Shown in pieces: positions 31,595-63,486 of a stretch of 64,000 bases of DNA. The stretch is from a bacterium. GTDB taxonomy: Bacteria > Chloroflexota > Dormibacteria > Aeolococcales > Aeolococcaceae. The DNA lies in the NCBI GenBank assembly GCA_021803465.1, contig JAJZLL010000049.1, positions 33,675-97,674 of the forward strand. The letters run 5' to 3'. The notes beneath the pieces are model-generated. The model had not been told where the DNA came from and made no database searches. It saw nothing but the letters and a program-made list of their open reading frames with translations. The position numbers and the translations under genes were made by a program. Numbering within the stretch: the first letter of the stretch is position 1; every line of letters starts with the position of its first letter.

Positions 31595-31605
31595 GAGGAT
31601 ATGTG

Positions 31606-33480
31606 ATGGCACAGACCTCTCACCGCAATGAACTTGGATACCTGGTGGATGGCTGGTCCCCTTCCGACAAACCATGGAAAGTGTCTCCCTCGGGAAACGG
31701 AGAGGGAGCGACCGATGCTGCAGCAAAGACTGCTGTCGTTCCACAGGCGGACAGCGCAGCACGACGTGCAGTCCGTCTGCACGAGGCCATCCATGCTGCA
31801 GTTGGTGAACAGCAGTTCCATTCTCCCTGGGAGAAGGCGCTCGAGGAGATGCGCGTTGATGCCATTGCCCATGGCCAGGGAGTGGACACGTCCCGACGGC
31901 TCGATGAGTATGATCTCTCGAGGCGTACTGTTCCCACTGTCCACGAGGACGCTGCACGCGTCTGGCTCCAGCTTGCGAGTGCTGCCTGCACTCCTGAGAG
32001 CCTCGCGAACGGCGCACCTGCTTTCCGTCCAGACATTCCTGGGGATCTGGAGAAGCTGACTGAGCGCGTGTTCGAGACGCTCTCTCCTGAGGAGAAGCGG
32101 GCAGTGACTGCTGCAGCTGAAACGCTCTACCATTCCCCAGCAGCCTCCACCCGTGATGTGCTGGCACGATCCCTGACGAGAAGATTCTCCGGCATGTCCA
32201 CAGGCGATCCGTCTCTTTCCCAGAACGGAAACGGGAAAGACGGACAGCCGGATGCTGGCTCACCGGGACAGCCTTCAACCTCAGGAAGCGAAAGGAATAC
32301 TCCTTCTGAATCCATGGCTCCGTCCCAGAACGCTTCAGCTGGTGAGGCACCATCTGAGGAGCAGACCAGCGCTTCCTCCGGCGAAGCCGGCTCTTCGGAG
32401 AACGTGGGAGTCGGCGAGCAGAATCCTGGAGCTTCCAGTGCTGAACAGCAATCCTCTTCAGGGGGAAGCGCCCCCACTCAGCCTTCACAAGGCGGAAGCA
32501 CAGGTGCCCTCCCTGCAACACCCAGCGACTCCATGGACAGTGGCAGCACCAAAGAGGCCAGTAGCCAGGACTCCGTCCAGAGTGGCTCTTCCAGCAGCGT
32601 TTCTGGAGAACGCACACGAGTCGAACCCCTCGGATGCACGGACGAGTCCACCCAGGAGGAAACCCAACAGCCAGATGGGTCGTGGAACACGTCCGGTCCC
32701 ATGCACATCCAGCATGCCAGTTCCCACCCACCGCAGGAGCTGCCCAAAAAGCTCTCCAATGGAAAGCGCGAGCATGATGGGCCACGGTCAACTGGCTCCG
32801 CTGGGAGTTCCACCCACTCCATAGGGCGACTTGTCATCGATGAGCATACGAACAGGAGCCACTCCGCCATCCCCATCACCCAGCCTGCAGGAGCAACGGA
32901 CACAGGACAGATCCCGGAGGTGATGGAGCGGTGGGCTGAGGACAAGCAGGTGTTCCGCACACGGCGTGGAGGGGGAACAATCCTCATCGACTGCTCTGGC
33001 TCGATGTCGTGGGACTGGGATGAGCTCAAGAAGGCAATCAAACGGTTTCCCACGCTTTGCATTGCCGTGTACAGTGGCCGCGACAGCAGTGGAAGACTCT
33101 GCATCATTGGCAAGGATGGCCGCTGGGCGGATTTCGATCCATCCCATATGAGCGGCGGCAACGAGGTTGACCTGGAAGCGCTCACCTGGCTCAGCTCCCA
33201 GAAGGGACCTCGGGTATGGCTGTCTGATGGATGCATATGCGGAGGACGGGTGGGAGCGCTCGGACTTGATGCTGCAGCCCGGGAGGCGCGGTCTCTTGCA
33301 GTCCATGCGAAAGTCATCCGGGCTGGGTCCATCGACGCGGCTCTTGGCGTCCTCCGTGTCCACGGCATGCGTGCTGTCAAGGGATCGTTCAATGCGCATT
33401 CGCCAGAATTCATTCCGAGCAGCTGGATTGAGTCGCGGTCCTACCGGCCGTACCGGTCCTCATATGGCATGGGCTTCTAA
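31606..33480 (+). CDS. vWA-domain protein with HExxH N-domain and long acidic S/G/Q/E-rich disordered linker; translationally coupled partner of the tandem AAA+ ATPase
   Basis: MIDAS motif ILIDCSGSMS near residue 470. HEAIH at residues ~60-64. Roughly 200 aa of low-complexity SGSERNTPSESMAPSQNASAGEAPSEEQTSASSGE.... AGGAGG RBS overlaps the upstream stop, 7 nt before ATG 31606. Confidence 0.8.
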   Translation: MAQTSHRNELGYLVDGWSPSDKPWKVSPSGNGEGATDAAAKTAVVPQADSAARRAVRLHEAIHAAVGEQQFHSPWEKALEEMRVDAIAHGQGVDTSRRLDEYDLSRRTVPTVHEDAARVWLQLASAACTPESLANGAPAFRPDIPGDLEKLTERVFETLSPEEKRAVTAAAETLYHSPAASTRDVLARSLTRRFSGMSTGDPSLSQNGNGKDGQPDAGSPGQPSTSGSERNTPSESMAPSQNASAGEAPSEEQTSASSGEAGSSENVGVGEQNPGASSAEQQSSSGGSAPTQPSQGGSTGALPATPSDSMDSGSTKEASSQDSVQSGSSSSVSGERTRVEPLGCTDESTQEETQQPDGSWNTSGPMHIQHASSHPPQELPKKLSNGKREHDGPRSTGSAGSSTHSIGRLVIDEHTNRSHSAIPITQPAGATDTGQIPEVMERWAEDKQVFRTRRGGGTILIDCSGSMSWDWDELKKAIKRFPTLCIAVYSGRDSSGRLCIIGKDGRWADFDPSHMSGGNEVDLEALTWLSSQKGPRVWLSDGCICGGRVGALGLDAAAREARSLAVHAKVIRAGSIDAALGVLRVHGMRAVKGSFNAHSPEFIPSSWIESRSYRPYRSSYGMGF

Positions 33481-33619
33481 GGCAGGACGGGATGGACACG
33501 TGATACACTGCACTTCGTTGTGAGGAGGATCCGGCCTGCGATCGGACGACTCCTTCCACCCGTGTACTGGGCGTCCTGCACACATTTCTGCCACCCGCAC
33601 GAGACAATTGTCAGCAAAG

Positions 33620-33639
33620 TTATCCACTTCCTGTGGATA
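33620..33639. promoter_or_regulatory. Pair of inverted DnaA boxes (TTATCCAC / TGTGGATA) in the dnaA promoter region
   Basis: agttatccacttcctgtggatagg, about 75 bp upstream of the dnaA ATG. Confidence 0.7.
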
Positions 33640-33711
33640 GGTTGGGGATAACTACGGTAGAATGCACGAAATGCGGGGGCTCTCCCCTCGCACATACAGC
33701 AGTGGACAGGC

Positions 33712-35127
33712 ATGGATGAAGTCACACGAGAACTCGACGGGGAAGTAACCTTTGATCCCCACCGGGTCTGGGAGATCGCACAGGAAGAGCTCAAATTCCA
33801 GTTGACGCGTCCCGGATACGAGACCTGGCTTGCGAACGCGAAGCTCGTCAATGCGGAAGGCGCTACCTACACGATCGGCGTTCCCACAAAGCTCGCACGT
33901 GACTGGCTCACAGAGCGGTATGCGCCACTCATCAAGGAGACTCTCGCAGGCATCCTTTCGAAGGAGTGCGACCTCGTCATCACTGTTGTCGACACTCCCG
34001 AGGCCCTTCCCATTCCCGATGATCCGCCAGTGCGGGAAGCTGAGGAGTTTTCCGCCTCCACATACGGCTCCCAGTTCGAAGATGACTCCAACGATGCAGT
34101 CATCAACCCAAACTTCACCTTTTCAACATTCGTTGTTGGCAACAGCAGCAGGTTCGCCCATGCAGCGTGCCTGGCTGTCGCGGAAGCTCCAGGGAAGGCG
34201 TACAATCCGCTCTTCATCTACGGCGGTGTGGGTCTGGGGAAAACACACCTCATGCACGCCATAGGAAACGCTGTGCGTGCGAAGACACGCCGTCCACCAA
34301 AAGTCGTGTATGTGACTTCAGAAAAGTTCACCAATGAGATGGTGCTTGCCATCCAGCAGGCCAAGACGAACGAGTTCCGGCAGAAGTACCGGTCCGTCGA
34401 TGTCCTCCTCATTGACGACATCCAGTTTCTTGCAGGCAAGGACCGAACCCAGGAGGAGTTCTTCCATACGTTCAATGCCCTTTACGAGGTTAGCAAGCAG
34501 GTCGTAGTCTCAAGCGACCGTCCACCGAAGGACATCCCCACGCTCGAAGACCGCCTCCGCAGCAGGTTCGAGGGTGGCCTCATCGCTGACATCAAGCCAC
34601 CGGACTTTGAAACCCGTCTCGCAATCCTCCACAGCAAACTCGGTGCGAAATCGTGGCTTGTGAGTGAAGAAGTGTGCGCATTCATGGCCCACCGCATCCA
34701 GAAGAACATCCGTGAACTCGAAGGTGCCCTCATCCGCGTTCTGGCGCATGCATCAATCAATCAGCGTCCTGTCTCCCTTGAGGAGGCACAGAGCATTCTT
34801 GCGGACATCATTCCCGATGCCACGCCCCTTTCCTCACTCAGCATTTCCGCCATCCAGCTCAATGTGGCTACGTACTTCGGCATTTCGCTTGAGGAAATGA
34901 ACGGGAAACGCCGTGACAAGCAGTTCGTCCTCCCACGACAGGTGGCGATGTACCTCTGCAGGGAAGAGACCGATGCATCCCTTCCCGCAATAGGAGCAGC
35001 ATTTGGCGGAAGGGACCATACGACTGTCCTCCATGCGATTGAGAAGATATCGGAACTCATGGGCGAGGATGAACGACTTGCATCGGATCTCGTCGCTCTT
35101 CAGACGCTTCTCCAGAACACACAGTGA
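33712..35127 (+). CDS. dnaA: Chromosomal replication initiator DnaA
   Basis: AAA+ Walker A GGVGLGKTHL, Walker B VDVLLIDDIQF, C-terminal DNA-binding signature (VAMYLCREETDASLPAIGAAFGGRDHTTVLHA). Confidence 0.95.
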   Translation: MDEVTRELDGEVTFDPHRVWEIAQEELKFQLTRPGYETWLANAKLVNAEGATYTIGVPTKLARDWLTERYAPLIKETLAGILSKECDLVITVVDTPEALPIPDDPPVREAEEFSASTYGSQFEDDSNDAVINPNFTFSTFVVGNSSRFAHAACLAVAEAPGKAYNPLFIYGGVGLGKTHLMHAIGNAVRAKTRRPPKVVYVTSEKFTNEMVLAIQQAKTNEFRQKYRSVDVLLIDDIQFLAGKDRTQEEFFHTFNALYEVSKQVVVSSDRPPKDIPTLEDRLRSRFEGGLIADIKPPDFETRLAILHSKLGAKSWLVSEEVCAFMAHRIQKNIRELEGALIRVLAHASINQRPVSLEEAQSILADIIPDATPLSSLSISAIQLNVATYFGISLEEMNGKRRDKQFVLPRQVAMYLCREETDASLPAIGAAFGGRDHTTVLHAIEKISELMGEDERLASDLVALQTLLQNTQ

Positions 35128-35383
35128 TGAGGGATAAACCTGTGGATGAAACTGCTCAGCCGGTGTGGAAACTGTGGACAGCGTGCACCCCTGTCACCTG
35201 CCTGTGGACAAACCGGCCAGATATGCACAGCGCCCCAACGTCAAAACCTGTTGTGCTAACACGCTTTTTTGAGTTATCCCCAGAATCCCCAGCTTATACT
35301 ACTGCATCTATTTGATATATCAGTTCATGGTTACTATTAATGTGTGTGCATAATTCCAACATCAGGCACGAAGGATGGTTGAT
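35128..35383. promoter_or_regulatory. oriC: Candidate oriC: DnaA-box cluster plus AT-rich unwinding element between dnaA and dnaN
   Basis: tgtggatga, tgtggaaac, tgtggacag, tgtggacaa and ttatcccca 9-mers, then the AT-rich run cttatactactgcatctatttgatatatcagttcatggttactattaatgtgtgtgcataattcc (~35293-35362). Confidence 0.75.
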
Positions 35384-36526
35384 ATGAAGTGTACGTTTCT
35401 TCCCTCACAGCTCAGCCAGGGCCTGTCCCTAGTCCAGCGGGCTGTTTCGCAGCGCTCCACCCTTCCTGTTCTGGGAAATGTGCTTATTGAGACTGTTCCT
35501 GGAGGTCTCAGACTTTCTGCAACAAACCTTGACCTCGCCATTGTCGACACTGTTCCTGCAGAAGTCGCAAAGGAGGGCAAGACGTCTGTCCCCGCAAAGC
35601 TGCTTGCGGACTACGTTGGATCCCTTCTTGAAGTTCCCTGCACCATGGAGCTCGACCCGCAGGGCCGTGTGCTCAACCTGACGTGCGGACTCCACAAGAC
35701 GAAACTTCATGTCATCGATCCTGCGGAATTCCCACCGCTTCCTGTTGCGGAGGGGGGGACATCCGTCATCGTTGATGGGAAGACGTTCGCGGCAGGCGTT
35801 GCCCAGACCGTCATTGCTGCAAGCAGCGATGAGACGGAACGCGTGTATACGGGCGTGCGGATCAAGGTGGATCCTTCAGCCCAGACAGTGACCCTCGCAG
35901 CCACGGACAGGCACCGTCTTGCCCTGAAAACGCTGCCTGCAAAGGAAATCCCTGATGGTGATGAGCAGCTCATAGCCATCGTTCCCGCCAAGCATCTGCA
36001 GGAAGTGGCAAGGGCAGTGAACGAGGCAAGGAAGGAAGTGGCCATCGCTCTTGGTGGCACGACCTCATTTGTGACATTCACGGTTGGGGATGTTGTGGTG
36101 ACAACGCGCACCATTGAGGGAAGATATCCCAAAGTTGAACAGGCCATCCCTGATGCTGCGGGGACAACGGTCGTGCTTCCAACTGCGGATCTGCGTCGGG
36201 AAGCAAAGACTGCATCCATCCTGGCCCGTGAGGAGTCGAATCCTGTGCGGATGTCCATAACCAGCGGAACGGTCGTGCTCACAGCGTGGTCGTCGGATGT
36301 CGGAGATGATGAAGTGCCCATACCTGCGGATGTCACAGGAGAGGGACTGGAGATTTCATTCAACTCAGGGTACTTCCTTGCTGCTCTGGAAGCGCTTGAC
36401 AGCGATACCGTCCACATGTCGTTCAACAAGGCTGAAGAACCTGGAACAATCCGTCCCCATGGACGGGAGGATTACGTTTACCTCCTCATGCCTGTCCTTC
36501 ATCCCTCTCTTCGGCCTTCCCTCTAG
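35384..36526 (+). CDS. dnaN: DNA polymerase III beta sliding clamp
   Basis: MKCTFLPSQLSQGLSLVQRAVSQRSTLPVLGNVLIE is typical DnaN. RBS aagga before ATG 35384 (track start 35375). Confidence 0.95.
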   Translation: MKCTFLPSQLSQGLSLVQRAVSQRSTLPVLGNVLIETVPGGLRLSATNLDLAIVDTVPAEVAKEGKTSVPAKLLADYVGSLLEVPCTMELDPQGRVLNLTCGLHKTKLHVIDPAEFPPLPVAEGGTSVIVDGKTFAAGVAQTVIAASSDETERVYTGVRIKVDPSAQTVTLAATDRHRLALKTLPAKEIPDGDEQLIAIVPAKHLQEVARAVNEARKEVAIALGGTTSFVTFTVGDVVVTTRTIEGRYPKVEQAIPDAAGTTVVLPTADLRREAKTASILAREESNPVRMSITSGTVVLTAWSSDVGDDEVPIPADVTGEGLEISFNSGYFLAALEALDSDTVHMSFNKAEEPGTIRPHGREDYVYLLMPVLHPSLRPSL

Positions 36527-43807: not shown

Positions 43808-46411
43808 GTGCTCACTGCGCTTGCTGGCGAGCAGTCCGATGATCCGCGGCGTATGTTTCAGGCGCATCTTGAGGCTGCGGAACATTTTTCCGTCTCCTTT
43901 GCCAGTGACAGCGGAGAACGGATCATGGTGTTCCTGCCGGATCTCGCCATGCAGTGTACGCCGCAGCCAGCGGATGACGGGAACGACCAGCATCTCGCTC
44001 TCCGCATTGATGCGATACGTCCCCAGTCCGGACATCCCTCAGACACGCATCTGCTCACTGTCACTGCGAAATCCATGCAGGTGAGTGCCACCAACGGCAC
44101 ATCGAGCGATACCCACCGTCTCCTCGACTGGCAGCGGTCGAGTGCAGCAGCAGCATCGTCCCCCATTCTGTTTGGAACACTCAAGCTTATTGACAGGCTG
44201 GAGGGGGAGGACCGTGCACGTGCGCAGCAGCACCGTGTGCATTATGTCGATACGAAGGAGTACTGGAGATGCCGTGCCTGCCGGGGATTCTGGCAGCCTG
44301 GACAGCACCAGCAGTGTCCATCCTGCGGAAGACCCTTTACCGAGCAGGACCGGAGACAGCCTGAAGTGGGCAAGATAGAGTTCAGTGTCCCCCGTGATGA
44401 GAAGATCACTCTCCAGCAGGACATGGCAGTTCTTGTGGAACCTGAAGATGGCCCGAGCATTGTTGCCCGGGTGAACAAGGTCGACAACAGGCGTCACCGG
44501 ATCGAGGTCACCTGCAGGTCCTTCGAACATCCGGGGCCGGAAGGAGCCATATCACCTTCATACAACAGGTCTCACTACCTGGCAAAGCGGAGTGTGCTTG
44601 CTTCCCTCGCCTCACGGGATTTCGGTGTGGGACTCCTAGCCCAGCTCCTTGTGGAACCACAGAAGGTGTGCGCTCCAGCCTACAGGCCTGGAGAAGGTGG
44701 TGACTGGCTCACTGGAGGCATGATTGCGAATCCACCTCAGGACAGGGCCGTATCCCTCCTCTCAACAATGAAGGCCGGGGAGGCGCTTCTCATCCAGGGA
44801 CCTCCTGGAACCGGGAAAACCACAGTCATAGTCGAAGCGATCAAGCGGAGGCTCACTGCCAATCCGGATGAGCGCATCCTTGTCACCTCGCACAGCAATC
44901 TCGCCGTTGACAACGCACTTGAGCGCCTTGCGGGAACTCCAGGAATGCGTGCTGTACGCGTTGCAAGGGCAGAGAGGGTGCATCCAGCTGTCGACCAGTA
45001 CCGCTGCGATGATGAGGATGATCCGCGGCTCCTTGAGGCGAACTGCTATTTCGCTACCTGCGCGACAGCCTCCACCTCAGCGATCACTGACATGAATTTC
45101 GACCTCGTCATCCTTGATGAGGCGAACAAGGCCCGTGTGGACGAGGCCCTGCCTGCGCTCAGGCTCGGTTCAGCAATCGCCATGGTGGGAGACCACAAGC
45201 AGCTGCCACCGGTTGAGGACGACTCGCTGTACAGCATTGTCGAGACAGATCCAGAACTTGAGGATCTTGTGAACATGAGTTTCTTTGAGCAGTGCTGGGA
45301 GGGAGGTGTGCCCGAGGAGGCGAAGTGCCTTCTCACAGTGCAGCACCGCATGCATCCCCAGATTGCAGGCTACATTTCAACCATGTCGTATGAGGGCCAG
45401 CTGCTCAATGCCCCTGAAGTAACTGCGTATGACTTTGTCACGCGGCAGCCATTTCCGGTGGCGCTTCATTTTGTCGATACGGTGAATACCCAGGGTGGGG
45501 AAAAACGGGGTCCAGGCGGTGCGCTGCGAAACGAACTCGAAGTGCGTGTCGCAGCCCATGTGGTGCGGCTCCTCGATGAACGCTGTCCACGGAACCTTTC
45601 CATGGCCATTATTGCCATGTATGCGGAGCAGGTAGAACGTCTGAGGCAGGCGCTGGGAAGAAGAAACTTCAAGCGTCCTGTGAAGATCGATACGGTCGAT
45701 TCCTTCGAGGGGCGGGAAGAGGACATTGTTGTCATCTCGCTAGTGAGAAGCAATGAGCGGGGACGCATAGGTTTCCTGAGGGTTCCCAACCGTCTCAATG
45801 TGGCCATATCACGGGCCAAGAGGCTCGTGGCGTGCATTGGCGACAGTGCAACGCTCCGGGCAGGCGAGGAATCCATGTATGGCGTCCTGGTCGACCAGGC
45901 GCGGGAATGTGGAGGCTGGATTGATGCCAAGGAACTTCTGCCACCTTCACACAAGTCTCGGCGCAACCGGAAGAAGAAGAGGCCCACAGCCGCCACTGGC
46001 GATGAAGCCCAGGTGCAGGATACTCCGCCTGGAGAAGGGCAGCAGGCCGAGGGGGCTGGTTCAGCAGCAACGAGGAGGCGTCGCAGACGTCGTCGTCGCA
46101 GAAAGGGAGGCAGCACTGCGCCAGGAGGAACACCTCCCCAGGGTGAGGGCGGTATGCCCAGCAGCGCAGGAGGTCCACAGCAGGGAACACTGCCGTTCAC
46201 GGATTCCAGCCGCGAGGCTGCTCCATCCTCATCTGAGGGAAGTGCGCCAGAGGATGGCCATGAATGGCATTTCGAGCCTGGCAAGAGGACACGGTCATTC
46301 CGTCCACAGCGGTCACGGGCGAACAATCACAAGACGACTCCTGTGGATGGTGAAGTCCCGTCTCTGACTGCTCCATCAGCAGTGCGCGAGGGATCAGGAG
46401 AGGAGGTTTGA
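43808..46411 (+). CDS. Superfamily-1 helicase of the Upf1/DNA2/NAM7 type with N-terminal CxxC...CxxC zinc ribbon and C-terminal poly-Arg/Lys low-complexity tail
   Basis: Walker A LIQGPPGTGKTT, Walker B LVILDEANKA, GDHKQLPP, VQHRMHPQI, VDSFEGREEDIVVISLV and RLNVAISRAKRL helicase motifs. Zinc ribbon CRACRGFW...CPSCGRPF. Tail RRRRRRRRRRRK. True start uncertain (overlaps minus ORF 43673..44035). Confidence 0.8.
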   Translation: MLTALAGEQSDDPRRMFQAHLEAAEHFSVSFASDSGERIMVFLPDLAMQCTPQPADDGNDQHLALRIDAIRPQSGHPSDTHLLTVTAKSMQVSATNGTSSDTHRLLDWQRSSAAAASSPILFGTLKLIDRLEGEDRARAQQHRVHYVDTKEYWRCRACRGFWQPGQHQQCPSCGRPFTEQDRRQPEVGKIEFSVPRDEKITLQQDMAVLVEPEDGPSIVARVNKVDNRRHRIEVTCRSFEHPGPEGAISPSYNRSHYLAKRSVLASLASRDFGVGLLAQLLVEPQKVCAPAYRPGEGGDWLTGGMIANPPQDRAVSLLSTMKAGEALLIQGPPGTGKTTVIVEAIKRRLTANPDERILVTSHSNLAVDNALERLAGTPGMRAVRVARAERVHPAVDQYRCDDEDDPRLLEANCYFATCATASTSAITDMNFDLVILDEANKARVDEALPALRLGSAIAMVGDHKQLPPVEDDSLYSIVETDPELEDLVNMSFFEQCWEGGVPEEAKCLLTVQHRMHPQIAGYISTMSYEGQLLNAPEVTAYDFVTRQPFPVALHFVDTVNTQGGEKRGPGGALRNELEVRVAAHVVRLLDERCPRNLSMAIIAMYAEQVERLRQALGRRNFKRPVKIDTVDSFEGREEDIVVISLVRSNERGRIGFLRVPNRLNVAISRAKRLVACIGDSATLRAGEESMYGVLVDQARECGGWIDAKELLPPSHKSRRNRKKKRPTAATGDEAQVQDTPPGEGQQAEGAGSAATRRRRRRRRRRKGGSTAPGGTPPQGEGGMPSSAGGPQQGTLPFTDSSREAAPSSSEGSAPEDGHEWHFEPGKRTRSFRPQRSRANNHKTTPVDGEVPSLTAPSAVREGSGEEV

Positions 46412-46415
46412 CGAC

Positions 46416-46994
46416 ATGGCGGATGCTGTCACTGTGTACGTCCGGCCACATGATGCTCAGTGTGACAGGGTGCGTTCGTATCTTGATGAGAAAGGCATTG
46501 CGTACACACTCCGTGATGTGACGCAGGATCCTGGCGCAAGCGCTGTCCTGTTTGGCTACTACGGCAAGGTGGTCACCCCTGTGGTGAGGAAGAACGACAC
46601 CATGGTTGCAGGCTACGATCCGATCCAGCTCGCGAAGCTCTTTCCATCCACTGGACCTGAAGAAGAGCATGTGCGTCTTGGCGCAGCAGTCAGGACTGTG
46701 ACTGCAGAGCGTGCAGCGGAACTGGGCCTGCCATTTCCTTTTGGAGTGGAGGTTGGGCCAGTTGGCGCGGATTCTCCAGCCTCAGAGGCTGGCATACATG
46801 AAGGCGATGTGATACTCACCATCGGTTCGTACACCCTTGACAGGGGGCTGCAGCAGTTTCAGCAGGCAATCAGCTCGCGTCAGCCAGGAACTTCCATGGA
46901 TGTGGAGATCTGGAGACAGGGATCGCGGCTGCCAGCGTCAATCCATTTTCCTGCAACGCAGGTCACTTCCCCTGAGGGCACACAGGAAGAGTAG
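46416..46994 (+). CDS. Glutaredoxin/NrdH-like thioredoxin-fold domain (single Cys, DAQC) fused to a PDZ domain
   Basis: VTVYVRPHDAQCDRVRSYLDEKGIAYTLRDV plus PDZ-like GVEVGPVGADSPASEAGIHEGDVILTIG. Starts 4 nt after the helicase stop. Confidence 0.65.
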   Translation: MADAVTVYVRPHDAQCDRVRSYLDEKGIAYTLRDVTQDPGASAVLFGYYGKVVTPVVRKNDTMVAGYDPIQLAKLFPSTGPEEEHVRLGAAVRTVTAERAAELGLPFPFGVEVGPVGADSPASEAGIHEGDVILTIGSYTLDRGLQQFQQAISSRQPGTSMDVEIWRQGSRLPASIHFPATQVTSPEGTQEE

Positions 46995-57012: not shown

Positions 57013-57984
57013 ATGGAGCAGACTGCGACGGATACTGGCACTTGGATCACGGGCTGGGATGAGGCACTCGCACGTGCGGAGGGCCATGTGCTGCAGGGCA
57101 CAGCATGGGGAGCCGTGCAGGAGGCCCTTGGGTACCCCGCAACATTCCTCTCAGGAACTGGATGGCATGGACTTGGAGTCATCCAGCGTCGTCCTCTATT
57201 CGGCTACGGCTACTTTCCCTACGGTCCTGTGATTGATGACGGTGCGGACATAGGAACGATGGCGAGGGAACTTCAGTCATGGGGAAGGGCGGAAGGACTT
57301 GCGTTCGTGCGCATTGAGCCATTTGGATGTCTTCCTGAACGGCTCAAGGGCTGCACCCTTCTCAGAAAAGGACGGGACATCCAGCCTCCGTATACGTGGA
57401 GACTGGATCTCCGGCCGAGCGAGGAGGTGCTCCGTGGAGCTCTTCGCACCCGACTCCGTGGCTACATCAACACTGCAGCAAAGCGTGGAATCACCATCCG
57501 TGCTACAACAGCGGATGAGGATCTCGAGACGTTTGTGTCCCTCCTTGAGAAGACTGCGGAAAACCGCTTTGCCACTCATGGCACGAAGTACTACCGGACA
57601 GTTCTCAGGGAGCTTGCACTCAGGGGGGCTGGACAGATGCGGTTCGCAGAACATGGGGGAGCACCCATTGCTGCGATCCTCTCTTTTGACTCTACAACTG
57701 TCAGGTACTATGCCCATGTGGCGGTTGATGATGCAGCGAACAGGACGCTCAAGGCATCTGGTCCACTCGCCTGGGAGGACATTCTCGATGCGAAACGCTC
57801 TGGAAAGCTGTGGTATGACTTCTGGGGAGTGCTTCCCGAGGAAGTGCCTGGCCACCCATGGAACGGTTTCACTGCATTCAAGAAGAGCTTTGGAGGAGAG
57901 CTTGTCGCGAGTGCGGGGAGCTGGGAGATTCCCGTTTCACCAGTCCGCCACAGGGTGGCACGTGGCATTGCGAAGGTGCGCTGA
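57013..57984 (+). CDS. FemAB/FemX-family peptidoglycan branch aminoacyl-transferase (paralogue 1)
   Basis: FemAB-like N-region (W...GW...Q...W), the RLDL...LRTRLRGYINTAAKRG region, and DFWGV near the C-terminus. Confidence 0.7.
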   Translation: MEQTATDTGTWITGWDEALARAEGHVLQGTAWGAVQEALGYPATFLSGTGWHGLGVIQRRPLFGYGYFPYGPVIDDGADIGTMARELQSWGRAEGLAFVRIEPFGCLPERLKGCTLLRKGRDIQPPYTWRLDLRPSEEVLRGALRTRLRGYINTAAKRGITIRATTADEDLETFVSLLEKTAENRFATHGTKYYRTVLRELALRGAGQMRFAEHGGAPIAAILSFDSTTVRYYAHVAVDDAANRTLKASGPLAWEDILDAKRSGKLWYDFWGVLPEEVPGHPWNGFTAFKKSFGGELVASAGSWEIPVSPVRHRVARGIAKVR

Positions 57985-59024
57985 TGCGGCCCGTCTACCC
58001 TGAGGAGCGGAACACCTGGGATGACCTCGTCTCCAGGAATGGCGATGGGGGCAACATGCTCCAGGGAGCATGCTGGGCTGCCTTCAAGGAGAAATGGGGC
58101 TGGAAAGCGGAACGCTTCATTGATGATCCGACTGCAACTGCTGTACTCGTGCTCACCCGCAACATTCCCATCATGGGAAGGATTGCCTACATTCCAAAGG
58201 GTCCAGGTTGCGCACTGCCAGGTGAGCTGGGAAGGATGGTGCGGGAACTCATGCCGCTTCTTCCCCACTGCGTTGCTGTCCAGGTGGAGCCGGAGTGGGA
58301 TGCGACAGATGTGATGCGCAAAGCGCTTGAGCGGGAAGGCTTCATCAAGAGCGCAGTTGACGTTCAGCTCACCCATGCGACGATGGTTGTTGAGCTGTCC
58401 GGATCCATGGAGGACATTCGTGCCCGGTATCGGCCCAAGGGCCGGTACAACCTTGGTGTCGCGAAGCGCCACGGAGTGCATGTTGCAGTGACAGCCACTC
58501 CAACGCAGCAGGAACTGGATGCCCTTGATGAGCTTGTGGACATCACCAATGACCGTGCGCAGTACACAGTCCGGCGGGCAGGGTATCTTCAGTCCTCCTG
58601 GCAGGAGTTTCTCGCTGCCAGTAAGGGTTTCCTTGCGCTTGCGTACTTCAACGATGAGCCAGTTGCTGGCGCATTTGTCACCATCCTTGGGAACAAGGCG
58701 TGGTACAAGGATGGGGGTTCAAGCAGAAACCATCGGGAGGTGATGGCACCGTATCTACTCCACGACACCATCATTGAGCAGCTGCTGACAATGGGCATCA
58801 CGTCATATGACCTTGGGTCAGTTCCCCCTCCCGATGAGGTTAATGAGCACCACGCGCTGTACGGGCTCTACCGGTTCAAGAAGGCGTTTGGCGCCCGGCA
58901 TGACACCTATGTCGGCACCTGGGATTTTCCTGTGAAGCGGCAGCGATACCTTCTCTGGAGGCAGTTCATCCAGAAACTCGTGTCCCGCCTGTACGTCTCG
59001 ATACGGCACATGTCCTGGTACTAG
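57984..59024 (+). CDS. FemAB/FemX-family peptidoglycan branch aminoacyl-transferase (paralogue 2)
   Basis: Same family features. ATG overlaps the TGA of paralogue 1 (TGATG). Confidence 0.7.
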   Translation: MRPVYPEERNTWDDLVSRNGDGGNMLQGACWAAFKEKWGWKAERFIDDPTATAVLVLTRNIPIMGRIAYIPKGPGCALPGELGRMVRELMPLLPHCVAVQVEPEWDATDVMRKALEREGFIKSAVDVQLTHATMVVELSGSMEDIRARYRPKGRYNLGVAKRHGVHVAVTATPTQQELDALDELVDITNDRAQYTVRRAGYLQSSWQEFLAASKGFLALAYFNDEPVAGAFVTILGNKAWYKDGGSSRNHREVMAPYLLHDTIIEQLLTMGITSYDLGSVPPPDEVNEHHALYGLYRFKKAFGARHDTYVGTWDFPVKRQRYLLWRQFIQKLVSRLYVSIRHMSWY

Positions 59025-59095: not shown

Positions 59096-59608
59096 ATGCC
59101 AAGTCAGAATCGTGATGGGAGGAATGCAGTGCATAAGCATTCTCCTGACAGCCAGGAGGAGCAGGTGATCCGGACAATCCTTCTCTCGCTCTCCGTCGCA
59201 TGGGGAGCGCTCGCAGTGCTCGGTTTTCTCCTCGATGGACTGTGGGTGCTTCTTGGCAGGATACGCATTGTCGAGTCGGGATATGCGGCACTCTGCATCA
59301 GCGGGCTTGCAGTACTGGGAGCAACATGTGGCCGTGCTGCGGAACAGCCAAACCGGACACACTCTCACTGGATCAGGTGGCTGTCCGAGCCCCTGTTCGG
59401 CCTCATTGCCATGATGGTGTATGCCGTGAGTGTCACAGCACTCGCATTTGTCTTCTCCATGCTGGGGCTGACCCGGGCTTGGGTGGATCTGCAGCCACTT
59501 CTTCTGCTCATCTTTCCGGTGTACCTTGTCATGTCGATCATGGGCCGGTGGGCACGGAATCACCTCGCTGCGTGGAGAAGCGGAACTGAATGGGTCCAAA
59601 AGGAGTGA
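59096..59608 (+). CDS. Hypothetical 4-TM membrane protein
   Basis: Hydrophobic segments read from the ORF, no motif recognised. Confidence 0.45.
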   Translation: MPSQNRDGRNAVHKHSPDSQEEQVIRTILLSLSVAWGALAVLGFLLDGLWVLLGRIRIVESGYAALCISGLAVLGATCGRAAEQPNRTHSHWIRWLSEPLFGLIAMMVYAVSVTALAFVFSMLGLTRAWVDLQPLLLLIFPVYLVMSIMGRWARNHLAAWRSGTEWVQKE

Positions 59609-60870
59609 ATGTGGGTAATCGCGCATGGATTTCAATCACAGCGTTCTTGCTCTGTGGTGCCCTTGCTTCATGTGGCTCCACTGCCGAGACTGCACGTGGA
59701 GGCCCCGCAACGACTGTCAGCATTGCAGGCACATGGCAGGTTCACAGAGTGGGAGAACCCTTCTCGCAATCCGTTGCGGGCATCAGCTGCGTGAATCAGA
59801 ACCTCTGCTACGCAATCACAAGTTCAACGGCCAACCTTTCGATGAGAACTCCTGGGCTCGCAACAATCACTGCGTCTGGAATGCGCACCACGCCATTGAC
59901 TCATTGGGTCTACGGATCCATCGCATGCACATCGAACGGCGCGTGCTGGCTTCCCTACCTCGATGGGATATATCGGCTGCACCGTTCGAAGCTTGCATCG
60001 GTGCAATACAGCAATTTCACTGGGCCAGTGGGATCGTGCGTCGACCCCTCGAAGTTCTGCCTCAGCATCATAACCTGCCATTCGGACACGGAGTGCCTGG
60101 GCGTCGATTGGTCACAGTTCGCAACAATTGGCAATGCGGTAGCCCCTTCACCCAAGGTTGCGATGTACAACGGTGCCATCTGGAAGGTCGTTTCCCTTCC
60201 CGGGGTGCCAATTGACACATCGAAATGCGTGTATGAGTGCCAGATCAATCCAAGCCAGCCTGTCTGCTTCTCGCAAACGGACTGTTCAATTGAGGGAACG
60301 TACTGGCTGGAAGCTGACCATCTACCAGTGCCATATACCGTAACGTACTCCTGGAATGGTGCAGCGTGGAGCGCCAGCGGGAGCACAGCACATGTGGCTG
60401 TTGCTGGTCGGTACTGCTACGACAGTTCCCTGTGCTGGATCTGGGGGCAAGACAGCGCATCTTCCCACGGACCGTTTCTTGGTGCTGAGGCACTGTATGG
60501 CGGCAAAAGCCATTCCCTTCGCTTCCCTTTTTCGACCAACTCAGCGGTCCCATATGGATGCCTATCCATTGTGGAATGTGGCGTGAGTGCCATTTCGTGC
60601 GTTTCCCAGGCGACATGCTGGATTGCTGGACTCACTCTTGGGAATGAGCCATTTCTCCTGAGATGGAACCAAACAGGCAGCTCAGCACCAAGCGTGCAGA
60701 AGATTGACGTGAACCTGCCCGGAAGGGTGAGCTCAATAGTCTGTCCTTCGAGCACATATTGTGTCGCCATCGGAGGAGAACTGACAGCAAACACGTGTTC
60801 TGGATACGAATGCGCACCCAAACCGGTGGACCATCCGTTCTACGCAGTCTTCAGGAGTGCTGGCTCATGA
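59590..60870 (+). CDS. Lipoprotein with divergent Cys-pair repeats (S/I-x-C-x3-4-C-x-A)
   Basis: Lipobox LLCGALASCGS. Recurrent ISCVNQNLCYAI, IACTSNGACWLPY, SCVDPSKFCLSI, ISCVSQATCWIAG, IVCPSSTYCVAIGG. Confidence 0.6.
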   Translation: MGPKGVNVGNRAWISITAFLLCGALASCGSTAETARGGPATTVSIAGTWQVHRVGEPFSQSVAGISCVNQNLCYAITSSTANLSMRTPGLATITASGMRTTPLTHWVYGSIACTSNGACWLPYLDGIYRLHRSKLASVQYSNFTGPVGSCVDPSKFCLSIITCHSDTECLGVDWSQFATIGNAVAPSPKVAMYNGAIWKVVSLPGVPIDTSKCVYECQINPSQPVCFSQTDCSIEGTYWLEADHLPVPYTVTYSWNGAAWSASGSTAHVAVAGRYCYDSSLCWIWGQDSASSHGPFLGAEALYGGKSHSLRFPFSTNSAVPYGCLSIVECGVSAISCVSQATCWIAGLTLGNEPFLLRWNQTGSSAPSVQKIDVNLPGRVSSIVCPSSTYCVAIGGELTANTCSGYECAPKPVDHPFYAVFRSAGS

Positions 60871-61017
60871 AAACCCTGATGGTTCGTCGAGGCTGGGAGT
60901 GAGGAGCAGCACTGACATTTCGCTGTGTGCAAATCCCCAGGCAACAGAAGGCGTGGCAGTGTCACAAAATATCCGCATGCACTAGTTCTTCCGGAATGGA
61001 CTGCTAAAATTCAGAAC

Positions 61018-62058
61018 ATGAATCCACTGCATATGCTCATGCCGTTTCGGCAGTCTTCGAATATCCGAAATCGTGGGATCAGTGGAGCAGTGATGCTTGC
61101 AGTCATATGCATCACGGCAGCATGTGGTCAGGCTCCCCATTCTTCAGTCAGTTCCCCTCAGCCGACATCTCATCCAGTCAAGACAACGAGCACAGAACGG
61201 CCATCACCAACAGTCCCTCCTGCACAGGTCAGTCCCATAGGCTGGAATGAACCGCGCCTCGTTTCAGGGGGAAACTTCAGTTCCATTTCTTGCCCAACAA
61301 CGGCCTTCTGTGTTGCAGTGGACAACTTGCAGACCAATAACATCTACACCTACCATGCGGGAAAGTGGTCGACAGCAACGTCCCGCACAGGTCTGGAATC
61401 AGTCTCCTGCGTGAGCAGCACATTCTGTGTCGCAGTGGGCAACGTCTATGCGCTCGTCTACAACGGCTCGAGCTGGTCAGCACCTGTGACAGACAGCCCA
61501 AGTTTTCTCACCTCGGTCTCCTGCATCAGCAGCACATTCTGCGCAGCATCGGAATACCACGGGAATGTTGAAGTCTACAATGGCAGTTCCTGGAAAGAGT
61601 CATATGTTCCAGGCTCGAGTGGTCTTGCATCAATCTCCTGCACATCGCCAACGTTCTGTGTTGCGGTTGGCGGAGGGAGCGTGGTGATGTTCAACGGAAG
61701 TTCCTGGAGCTCTCCAGTGTCAGTAGATCCAGGAACACAGCTTTCGTCCGTATCCTGCACAAGCAGCCAATTTTGCATGGCGGTTGGAGGGACAAGTGCT
61801 GTGCCCTTCAATGGAAAGAAATGGATGGCACCAGAACCAGTCGGCAATTATGGACTTGCAGCAGTTTCATGCTCAGGAAAGACTTTTTGCATCGCGTCTG
61901 GTGGCAATGGTGATGCATTCACCTACAACGGCTCGGGCTGGTCAGACCCTTCGCAGATGGATTCCACCTACAATGTTGTCTCGCTCTCGTGTCCGGAACT
62001 GTACAGCTGCGCTGCAGCGGACGATGTGGGGCGTATCACATTCTCCTCGGGCTGGTGA
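61018..62058 (+). CDS. Lipoprotein composed of seven ~38-aa repeats (L-x-S-V-S-C-x-S-x-x-F-C-x-A-V-G ... Y-N-G-S-S-W-S)
   Basis: Lipobox VICITAACGQ. Seven evenly spaced SVSCxSSTFCVAVG / YNGSSWS units read directly from the ORF. Confidence 0.65.
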   Translation: MNPLHMLMPFRQSSNIRNRGISGAVMLAVICITAACGQAPHSSVSSPQPTSHPVKTTSTERPSPTVPPAQVSPIGWNEPRLVSGGNFSSISCPTTAFCVAVDNLQTNNIYTYHAGKWSTATSRTGLESVSCVSSTFCVAVGNVYALVYNGSSWSAPVTDSPSFLTSVSCISSTFCAASEYHGNVEVYNGSSWKESYVPGSSGLASISCTSPTFCVAVGGGSVVMFNGSSWSSPVSVDPGTQLSSVSCTSSQFCMAVGGTSAVPFNGKKWMAPEPVGNYGLAAVSCSGKTFCIASGGNGDAFTYNGSGWSDPSQMDSTYNVVSLSCPELYSCAAADDVGRITFSSGW

Positions 62059-62130: not shown

Positions 62131-63486
62131 CTATCGCCAGATGCGGCGCATGATGACCTTCGCAAGCTTGTCCGGATCGTGGTGGGAGGGGGTGTCCTTT
62201 GAGACGACATCCGCAAGCACGTAGTGGATGGGACGCTGCATCGCCTGGTCCTTGTCAAACAGCACCCGGGTGATGCCAGCATCGACAGCGGCCTCAGGAA
62301 GCGGGTACGAGAGGTTGCTGTTCACGATGACATAGTCGAAGAGTCCCTCACCGACATGCTGTTCGATGACATCAAGGTGTTTGCTGACCGAGTATCCAAG
62401 CGTTTCTCCCGGCTGGGAAGCGACATTGCAGATGTAGACCTTGAGTGCTGGAGTGGAGCGGAGGGTCATTGCCATGCCATCGACAAGCAGGTTCGGAAGG
62501 ATCGAGGTGTACAGCGATCCCGGACCAATGAGCACAATGTCCGCATCAAGGAGTGCCTGCTGTGCTTCAGGATTGATGGGCGGGTCTGGCGGATCGAGAA
62601 ACACCCTGTCTATCTCGCCAAGGCCATGGGGAACGCTCGACTCTCCAATGCGGATCTCCCGGCCAGCCTCAGCGCAGAGAAGGATGTCCTGGAGGGTGCT
62701 CGGGACGATCTGGCCACGCACAGCAAGGACCCTTCCTGACTCCCGGAGCGCATGTTCGAAGTCACCAGTGATCTCCGTCATTGCAGTGATGAAGAGGTTG
62801 CCAAACGAATGACCACCGAGATCTCCAGTACCGCTGAACCGGTGCTGGAAGAGCTGGGTCATGAGGGGTTCCGTTTCTGCAAGCGCAGTGAGACACTGGC
62901 GGAAGTCGCCTGGTGGAAGAATGCGGTACTGGGAGCGGATTCTGCCACTCGATCCACCATCGTCTGCGACTGTCACAATGGCAACGATGTTTCCCGTGTA
63001 CTTCTTGATGCCACGGAGCAGGGAGCTCAGGCCCGTGCCACCACCGATCGTGACGACCCGAGGTCCCTTCGAGAGCATCCTGTACGAGTAGAGCCGGTCA
63101 ATGATGCCTGCGGCATCACCACCGCGTGCTTCGATGAGCGGACCGAGGATGGACTGCCCAAGCTTGTAGAAGCTGAGAAGCAGCAGGCCCACGCCTAGCA
63201 CTGCAAAGAGCGATGCGCGAACAAGACGTGGAAGGAACTGGAGCGTGAGGGTCTGCACCCAGACTGGGAAGCGGATCGTGCTGTAGGCATCCCTCAGGGC
63301 ATACTCTGCCCCAAGGCTCAGCATGAGGATGCTGAAGAAAAGCAGGAGAAGCCAGCGCTTGACATGGATCCCTGGAAGGAACCACGCTGCGATGGCATGT
63401 CGACGTCGACCTTGTCGTACACTCATCACGATGGAATGCATTGTCCCACAAATGCAAAATGTCCGTAGTAGCGGCATGCGAAGCAA
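62131..63486 (-). CDS. YvcK/CofD-like (UPF0052, gluconeogenesis factor family) protein with N-terminal two-TM extension
   Basis: VVTIGGGTGLSSLLRGIKKYTGNIVAIVTVADDGGSSGRIR core, preceded by ~120 aa containing hydrophobic helices. Confidence 0.75.
   Translation of the reverse strand: MLRMPLLRTFCICGTMHSIVMSVRQGRRRHAIAAWFLPGIHVKRWLLLLFFSILMLSLGAEYALRDAYSTIRFPVWVQTLTLQFLPRLVRASLFAVLGVGLLLLSFYKLGQSILGPLIEARGGDAAGIIDRLYSYRMLSKGPRVVTIGGGTGLSSLLRGIKKYTGNIVAIVTVADDGGSSGRIRSQYRILPPGDFRQCLTALAETEPLMTQLFQHRFSGTGDLGGHSFGNLFITAMTEITGDFEHALRESGRVLAVRGQIVPSTLQDILLCAEAGREIRIGESSVPHGLGEIDRVFLDPPDPPINPEAQQALLDADIVLIGPGSLYTSILPNLLVDGMAMTLRSTPALKVYICNVASQPGETLGYSVSKHLDVIEQHVGEGLFDYVIVNSNLSYPLPEAAVDAGITRVLFDKDQAMQRPIHYVLADVVSKDTPSHHDPDKLAKVIMRRIWR

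Follow-up and report, generated by a model that had tools for sequence, protein, structure and literature searches.

Two adjacent predicted lipoproteins from a Dormibacteria genome as probable seven-bladed propellers with a cysteine pair in each blade

In a 64,000-nucleotide stretch of contig JAJZLL010000049.1 (assembly GCA_021803465.1), referred to as the window, two consecutive open reading frames (ORFs) on the forward strand, here called A and B, encode proteins built from repeats with two Cys residues each. We consider it likely that A and B are paralogous, lipid-anchored, extracytoplasmic seven-bladed β-propellers of an uncurated superfamily, which serve as binding platforms stapled by disulfides. 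The fold is an ordinary one and this is not a new kind of system; what is new is the Cys-pair version of the propeller together with its uncurated family. The two proteins and their predicted parts outside the blades of B are located as follows.

59590-60870, forward strand: protein A, an ORF of 426 amino acids (aa), predicted lipoprotein whose seven-bladed Cys-pair propeller is divergent and of the long subtype
59590-59673, forward strand: predicted signal peptide of A with the canonical lipobox L-A-S-C, Cys28, read from the sequence
59767-60867, forward strand: predicted propeller domain of A, from the Cys alignment, hhalign, AlphaFold2 and Foldseek
60925-62058, forward strand: protein B, longest ORF in the ORF list
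61018-62058 (or from 61039), forward strand: protein B as a lipoprotein, with an uncertain start
61039-61125, forward strand: predicted signal peptide of B, MPFRQSSNIRNRGISGAVMLAVICITAAC, with the lipobox I-T-A-A-C
61126-61236, forward strand: Pro/Ser/Thr-rich tether of B between the lipidated Cys and the propeller, from its composition
61237-61266, forward strand: N-terminal segment IGWNEPRLVS of the B domain, with short AlphaFold2 strands at domain residues 8 and 12-13

Protein B contains exactly seven C-x5-C pairs with a period of 38-40 aa, which bears out the seven evenly spaced two-Cys repeats that the original prediction had described in the downstream protein. Aligned in register, the repeats read [L]-x-S-[VI]-S-C-x-S-x-x-F-C-x-A-x-G ... 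[YF]-N-G-S-S-W-S. The N-G-S-S-W that had been called conserved stands in part, since five blades show a clear N-G-S-x-W and two a degenerate form, blade 1 (HAGKW) and blade 7 (FSSGW). Each blade begins with a hairpin, L-x-S-V-S-C-x-S-x-x-F-C-x-A-V-[DG], whose two Cys residues flank the tight turn between strands 1 and 2; a third strand follows, and then a [YF]-[ND]-G-S-x-W turn leads into the outer strand. The blades, all placed by the repeat alignment and the AlphaFold2 model, are these.

61267-61383, forward strand: blade 1 of B, aa 115-153, C123/C129
61384-61497, forward strand: blade 2 of B, aa 154-191, C162/C168
61498-61614, forward strand: blade 3 of B, aa 192-230, C200/C206
61615-61731, forward strand: blade 4 of B, aa 231-269, C239/C245
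61732-61845, forward strand: blade 5 of B, aa 270-307, C278/C284
61846-61965, forward strand: blade 6 of B, aa 308-347, C316/C322
61966-62055, forward strand: blade 7 of B, aa 348-377, C356/C362, truncated past the Trp

The C-terminus of B lies directly after the Trp of blade 7, and the N-terminal GWNEPRLV is similar to the W-S-x-P-x-x-[IV] strand that comes after each blade. Because of these two features, the N-terminal strand probably completes blade 7 as its outer strand, in the manner of a velcro closure. No tandem repeat was detected in a search at the DNA level, and the duplications that gave rise to the blades are thus old. The interval 60001-62000, covering the 3' part of A together with B, has the lowest G+C content in the window (0.538, compared with 0.54-0.60 elsewhere), which may reflect the Ser/Thr/Asn-rich composition of the repeats or a foreign origin.

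The fold of B was modelled with AlphaFold2 from an alignment of its repeat domain with 34 trimmed seven-repeat homologue domains (alignment A1, 35 domains in total). The model of the repeat domain reached a predicted local distance difference test score (pLDDT) of 94.1 and a predicted template-modelling score (pTM) of 0.92, and is all-β with 3-4 strands per repeat in a regular pattern. Searched against the PDB with Foldseek, it returned seven-bladed propellers throughout, at template-modelling (TM) scores of 0.75-0.84. The best E-value, 1.8e-12, was that of Ycf48 (TM 0.76, 14% identity), followed by RACK1, G-beta and WDR5 at TM of about 0.8. The model of A was less confident than that of B (pLDDT 66.8, pTM 0.73), and its Foldseek matches were the same seven-bladed folds with Ycf48 in first place. 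The seven-bladed β-propeller, not a solenoid, is strongly supported by these models as the fold of A and B. Of the two folds originally offered, a seven-bladed propeller or a β-solenoid, the propeller holds for B on its pTM and its uniformly seven-bladed neighbours, and the solenoid has to be given up. A solenoid would have the regular repeat length in its favour and nothing more. The pTM of 0.92, structural neighbours that are exclusively closed seven-bladed propellers, and a family copy number quantised at 7 or about 14, as in closed propellers and not open solenoids, refute it at the level of prediction, and we regard it as practically excluded.

In protein A, the main C-x5-C pairs lie at residues 67/73, 113/119, 163/169, 226/232, 276/282, 337/343 and 385/391, at a spacing of 46-63 aa. 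Four extra Cys pairs are found between blades, at 150/157, 213/217, 324/330 and 403/408 (C-x3/4/5/6-C). It had been proposed that A carries a divergent repeat of the form I-x-C-x3-4-C-x-A; divergent it is, but the main pairs are C-x5-C, and the shorter or other spacings are those of the extra pairs. A profile of the B repeat scored 17.3 bits on A, whereas none of 200 shuffled versions of A scored above 6.7 bits. That difference, together with the occurrence of the same repeat in 927 copies from 116 independent homologues, means that the repeat pattern is not a product of chance. An indexed search with A returned solely its own near-identical copy, and an exhaustive HMMER scan over 1.84 billion representatives gave 26 weak matches, the best non-self one at 1.9e-13.

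The relation between A and B becomes visible through relatives of a long subtype, whose repeat reads L-x-G-V-S-C-x-S-x-x-x-C-x-A-V-G ... P-L-x-E-R-W-N-G-x-x-W-S, recurs about every 50 residues and is mostly present in 7 or 13-14 copies. When A was aligned with 15 long-type seven-repeat units (alignment A2), all 14 of its main Cys residues, that is all seven pairs, fell on the invariant Cys of these relatives, and the W-N-G-x-x-W motif proved to be partly lost in A. Comparison of A1 with A2 by hhalign gave a probability of 99.9% and an E-value of 4.2e-37 with the seven blades in register. This profile-profile match marks A and B, at the level of sequence, as paralogues that represent two subtypes of one superfamily, the short one of B (38-40 aa per blade) and the long one of A (about 50). 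Within the 64-kb window, the family profiles match A and B only.

The repeat had been called unfamiliar. This is right in that no curated model covers A or B, and wrong if taken to mean that the repeat is peculiar to the locus, as at least 1,879 B-type proteins are present in the database at E≤1e-3. The best non-self match has an E-value of 2e-80, and identities range from 28 to 47% among the matches listed. The named relatives of B come from metagenome-assembled genomes of Acidimicrobiales, Solirubrobacterales and Jatrophihabitans (Actinomycetota-like), and nearly all are labelled "hypothetical protein". A scan of a genome collection with a single protein found one Solirubrobacterales relative only, and a cluster look-up for names of relatives found none. 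The number of repeats in 120 retrieved relatives is nearly always 7, or 8-14 in longer proteins of about 450-600 aa, as expected for proteins that form one closed propeller or two. In both subtypes, many relatives are about 600-1,360 aa long, have 12-14 repeats and are probable tandem double propellers (P0002, P0014, P0019-P0023, P0247, P0249-P0251, P0253, P0258-P0260, P0263, P0266).

Conservation in the family is centred on the Cys pair and the Trp. In the 35 domains of A1, all 14 Cys are invariant and so are five of the blade Trp residues. Of the 927 repeats, 924 have both Cys and 99% have the Trp; three repeats are without one Cys and none is without both. The consensus of these repeats is G-x-x-L-x-S-V-S-C-P-S-x-S-F-C-V-A-V-D-x-G-N-A-L-T-Y-N-G-S-S-W-S-x-P-x-x-I-D. 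The superfamily can be defined by 7 (or about 14) repeats with L-x-x-[VI]-[ST]-C-x5-C-x-A-[VI]-[GD] and [WYF]-[ND]-G-x-x-W, and A and B belong to it by their matches to its members.

Export of the two proteins was read from their N-termini. Protein A begins with MGPKGVNVGNRAWISITAFLLCGALAS-C, its signal ending in ...AFLLCGALAS-C; in the public gene call it starts 7 codons later and has 419 aa. The start of B is less certain, with in-frame ATG codons at 61018, 61033, 61039 and 61093. The last of these is the start in the public gene call (P0001, 321 aa) and has GGAG 5 nucleotides upstream, and it leaves just MLAVICITAA ahead of the lipobox Cys, which is Cys67 when numbered from 60925. Starting at 61018, 61033 or 61039 gives B a proper charged n-region. 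From 61039, I-T-A-A-C is preceded by MPFRQSSNIRNR and GISGAVMLAVIC, and the whole, MPFRQSSNIRNRGISGAVMLAVICITAA-C, comprises a charged n-region, a hydrophobic core and a relaxed lipobox. Both proteins have the features of a bacterial lipoprotein signal (n-region, h-region and the lipobox [LVI][ASTVI][GAS]-C), A in canonical form and B by relaxed patterns only; I-T-A-A-C fits the relaxed lipobox patterns of Gram-positive bacteria and not the strict [LVI][ASTVI][GAS]C. The tether of B that follows is 39 aa long (residues 68-106) and 56% Pro/Ser/Thr. The pair of lipoproteins originally proposed is thus recovered as a prediction, with both ORFs in place and with the lipoboxes LASC in A and ITAAC in B, the latter relaxed and dependent on the start.

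A hydrophobic N-terminal segment precedes the repeats in 90 of the 106 full-length-looking short-type relatives and in 18 of the 23 long-type ones, and the partner domains judged genuine are an N-terminal cutinase, PASTA, Big_3_5/Big_7 (immunoglobulin-like), TIG, fn3 and DUF3298. As most relatives have export signals and the partner domains are extracellular, the family is extracytoplasmic, and these features together with the lipoboxes of A and B agree with the cell-surface location that had been suggested. Judged from the N-termini, the lipid anchor is a local solution in a family that is otherwise exported. Fusion of the module to immunoglobulin-like, fn3, PASTA or cutinase domains is frequent. 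In P0047 and P0101, an N-terminal cutinase is fused to a C-terminal seven-repeat Cys-pair propeller, an architecture which suggests that the propeller can act as the substrate-targeting module of a secreted esterase. A tblastn search of annotated plasmids gave a match confined to the immunoglobulin-like domain of the query.

As the original prediction had found, the repeat of A and B matches no named repeat family. Pfam-A and NCBIfam gave nothing at threshold on either protein, only noise (DUF4971 at E 0.007, DUF2007_rel at E 0.28), and the 35 members of A1 matched no curated family consistently, although some relatives touch Tectonin, the sole curated sequence family of which this is true. 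The labels CBM_5_12 (PF02839), NfeD (PF01957) and Qn_am_d_aII (PF14930) on relatives are artefacts, matches of 12-30 residues to the Y-N-G-S-S-W region of the blade, and PF02839, PF14930 and PF01957 are likely to be systematic false annotations of these proteins in public resources. Tectonin (PF19193) matches 8 of the 35 A1 members, with a best E-value of 2.6e-10, over several blades. In full-length relatives it scores mostly 20-27 bits, and once 38 bits (P0062), the Pfam cutoff being 30. A and B themselves gave no match; they are therefore not members of Tectonin, to which the family as a whole is peripheral. No significant match came out of the PDB sequence searches, whether the query was the short-type profile, the long-type profile or a consensus-like member. 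The best match of the A2 profile in the PDB was BP39L at a non-significant E of 0.19, with 236 residues or about 4.7 blades aligned in the repeat register, [DE]RWNG included. The whole-domain score of BP39L was 14.0 bits, against at most 4.4 in 1,000 shuffles; a single-repeat hidden Markov model (HMM) remained at noise level, and the short-type (B) profile had no match to BP39L.

Among proteins of known structure, several kinds of propeller invite comparison with A and B. Ycf48/HCF136 (PDB 2xbg, 5oj5) ranks first among solved structures in Foldseek for both proteins, with seven blades and a similar size; its identity to A and B is 12-14% and the similarity is structural only. Its turn is Asp-box-like, D-G-G-x-T-W, whereas the turn here is [YF]-[ND]-G-S-x-W and one residue shorter, and we know of no per-blade Cys pair in Ycf48. 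PSII_BNR (PF14870) was absent from A, B and the 35 members, and BNR_2 was found in 1 of the 35 only, at E 9e-4. If A and B were assembly or chaperone factors of the Ycf48 kind, docking on nascent membrane complexes at the outer membrane face, this would accord with the Foldseek ranking of both models, with a co-oriented gene for a small membrane protein at the locus, and with the account of cyanobacterial Ycf48 as itself a lipidated seven-bladed propeller (PMC8038367). Set against this are the low identity, the equal or higher TM reached by generic WD40 propellers, and the lack of PSII_BNR in every relative searched. The Dormibacterota are also not known to be phototrophs, and we find such a role improbable. 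The WD40 proteins RACK1, G-beta and WDR5 share the seven-bladed architecture and have the highest TM to B (0.79-0.84), but WD40 (PF00400) had no match in A or B at E≤1 or in the 35 members at E≤0.01, and the GH...WD signature is absent from the repeats. WD40 proteins are mostly cytoplasmic and without blade disulfides. Tectonin (fungal Tectonin 2 and tachylectin-like lectins) shows a hairpin and then a G-x-x-W turn, as the Cys-pair family does; its Pfam profile has 216 positions, about 36 aa per blade if six-bladed, and it is not known to have a conserved Cys pair. BP39L/CV39L (PropLec7C, IPR016285, PDB 6gxr) is seven-bladed and repeats about every 50 aa, as the long subtype does, and differs in having Ile and Val at the positions of the family's Cys. 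Both are sugar-binding propellers: tectonins recognise O-methylated glycans (PMC12203525), and BP39L is a bacterial PropLec7C lectin that binds fucose and mannose (PMC11186620). A and B might be glycan-binding lectins, remote homologues of these two, with sugar sites between blades and a function in surface adhesion or recognition of wall glycans. The Tectonin matches among relatives, one of them over the Pfam cutoff, the standing of BP39L above its shuffles at the whole-domain level as the best PDB sequence match of the long-subtype profile, and the cutinase fusion all point in this direction. Pointing away from it are the absence of any tectonin or PLL structure among the top 50 Foldseek matches, the six blades of Tectonin in the literature against seven here, and the loss of the family's conserved Asp from most blades of B, and we entertain the lectin assignment only as a tentative possibility.

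As for the Cys pairs, exported proteins with strictly conserved, evenly paired Cys usually carry disulfides. The best analogue for how the Cys of this family probably work is the CRINKLY4 ectodomain (ACR4/PpCR4), an extracellular seven-bladed propeller of about 39-aa repeats with one conserved disulfide per blade, which its authors considered unique to these receptors and explained as adapting them to surroundings outside the cell or in the cell wall (bioRxiv 10.1101/2020.08.10.245050). It differs in being eukaryotic and fused to a kinase, in having a TNFR-like domain, and in that its pore is plugged by an N-terminal strand. ACR4/PpCR4 was not matched by A1, A2 or P0062 in the PDB sequence searches (E≤1-10) and was not among the top Foldseek matches. 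As there is no sequence relationship, a per-blade disulfide in this family would be a case of convergence with CRINKLY4, whose Cys spacing probably differs from the C-x5-C found here. By this analogy, one disulfide per blade is plausible for A and B. In the B model, by DSSP, strand 1 ends two residues after the first Cys, a turn of two residues follows, and the second Cys is residue 2 of strand 2. In six of the seven blades, strand 1 has 8 residues and strand 2 has 6, and this mismatch suggests a bulge that could bring both Cys to one face. The alternative partner would be the neighbouring blade, the second Cys of one blade bonding to the first of the next in a closed ring of seven staples. 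The register of the model, which by geometric inference points the two Cys of a blade to opposite faces and so toward both neighbouring blades, would allow this, and one hairpin face made of small residues (S, S, A) would permit close packing of blades. By a rough geometric estimate, though, strand A lies too far from strand B of the next blade for a disulfide. The i/i+6 spacing is strictly fixed and the inter-blade spacing varies from 31 to 60 aa, the extra Cys pairs of A are all local (x3 to x6), the bulge suggested by the strand lengths would place both Cys on one face, and in CRINKLY4 the disulfides are intra-blade and the terminal blades are not linked (bioRxiv 10.1101/2020.08.10.245050). 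Inter-blade bonding is in our view unlikely, and on the model pairing within the blade is distinctly more likely than pairing between blades. Still less do we expect the propeller to be a scaffold on which the Cys pairs do redox chemistry or bind metal. Such a function would fit their extreme conservation and the glutaredoxin-PDZ gene 13 kb upstream. It is at odds with seven equivalent sites in a buried structural position of the model, at the start of two inner strands, with the lack of His/Asp partners and of CxxC or CxxCH motifs in proteins that are exported, and with the structural use of such pairs in extracellular CRINKLY4.

The explanation that we favour, a disulfide-stapled and lipid-anchored pair of propellers, would work as follows. 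A and B would be exported by Sec and then lipidated at the +1 Cys. Oxidation of the Cys pairs would form one disulfide per blade, stapling the propeller outside the cytoplasm as in the CRINKLY4 ectodomain, and the rigid disc of B would stand on its flexible Pro/Ser/Thr tether. The propeller could then offer a platform for binding a ligand of the cell envelope or the environment, most plausibly a glycan. The best-supported guess at the role is that of a binding module on the cell surface, stabilised by disulfides and possibly a lectin, and a link to peptidoglycan is suggested solely by the FemAB and YvcK genes nearby and by the PASTA fusions of relatives.

Several points weigh against this explanation. 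The lipobox of B requires a start upstream of that in the public gene call, and a lipobox-like motif occurs in only 8 of the 106 relatives. The near-invariance of the Cys is partly a matter of ascertainment, for the detecting HMM contains the Cys and Cys-less repeats are under-sampled. A strict 2:2 hairpin would, in the model, put the Cys side chains on opposite faces of the sheet and disfavour a bond within the hairpin. The links to lectins are weak, none being significant for A or B and the single-repeat comparison with BP39L lying at noise. Three relatives on long contigs have unrelated gene neighbourhoods, two of them beside integrases or transposases, and the association with FemAB may be incidental.

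The genes around A and B, and two further features of the window, are listed here.

57013-59024, forward strand: tandem pair of genes for FemAB-family transferases of the peptidoglycan interpeptide bridge, directly upstream of the locus (Pfam FemAB, E 2e-22 and 2e-25)
59096-59608, forward strand: hydrophobic protein of 170 aa with several hydrophobic segments and no Pfam family, from the ORF and the public gene call
62131-63486, reverse strand: YvcK/CofD-family gene, convergent and downstream, from the Pfam scan
46416-46994, forward strand: protein of 192 aa with an N-terminal glutaredoxin and a C-terminal PDZ domain, an unusual architecture, from the Pfam scan
43808-46411, forward strand: superfamily-1 helicase of 867 aa (AAA_11/AAA_12)

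The 170-aa ORF ends in a stop codon that overlaps the ATG at 59590, the first of A, and lies right next to the position where the public gene call starts A; the two genes are probably translationally coupled, and the hydrophobic protein may be a dedicated membrane partner of A. The FemAB genes are possible operon partners of A and B. Together with YvcK and the PASTA fusions in relatives they hint at a cell-wall theme, to which we give little weight. The YvcK/CofD neighbour is 96% identical to a protein of "Candidatus Dormibacteria bacterium", and all its named matches are from Dormibacter(i)ota, described as the closest lineage to the Chloroflexota, which in turn belong to Terrabacteria (PMC10608941). 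The source is a metagenome-assembled genome of Candidatus Dormibacterota, and the public contig with the gene calls is DAHXKY010000027.1 of GCA_027366095.1. In two other metagenome-assembled genomes, family members (L004 5173-6399 and L005 6001-7323) stand beside phage-type integrases, a resolvase, IS110 transposases and a PemK toxin, in variable or mobile regions. In the window, a scan for promoters and terminators gave sites no more numerous than in shuffled sequence, and Rfam gave nothing. The GC skew changes sign at about 30000-36000, being negative before about 30 kb and positive after about 36 kb with a cumulative minimum at about 34-36 kb, which could reflect a strand bias of the origin or terminus type or a mere change in gene orientation.

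Beyond the locus, A and B point to a very common extracytoplasmic module that is invisible to Pfam and NCBIfam. A family definition would annotate thousands of surface proteins, and the alignments A1 and A2 could seed models of both subtypes. The repeat is also a natural idealised one, with the consensus L-x-SVSC-PSxSFC-VAVD-xxGNALTYNGSSWSxPxxID and a built-in Cys staple, and as such is relevant to propeller design; the staple bears as well on how secreted proteins are stabilised in bacteria with oxidative folding. A wider proposal, which we put forward only tentatively, is that A and B belong to a large and essentially undescribed superfamily of stapled extracellular propellers, with thousands of members in two subtypes from Actinomycetota-like metagenome-assembled genomes and this Dormibacterota genome, which arose as an independent counterpart of CRINKLY4 and consists of surface lectins distantly related to tectonin and PropLec7C; in its bolder variant, the Cys would join neighbouring blades into a closed covalent ring. 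Almost nothing is known of the surface biology of abundant uncultured soil lineages such as Candidatus Dormibacterota, and if the links to tectonin and BP39L are true, these propellers would be candidate surface lectins of such lineages.

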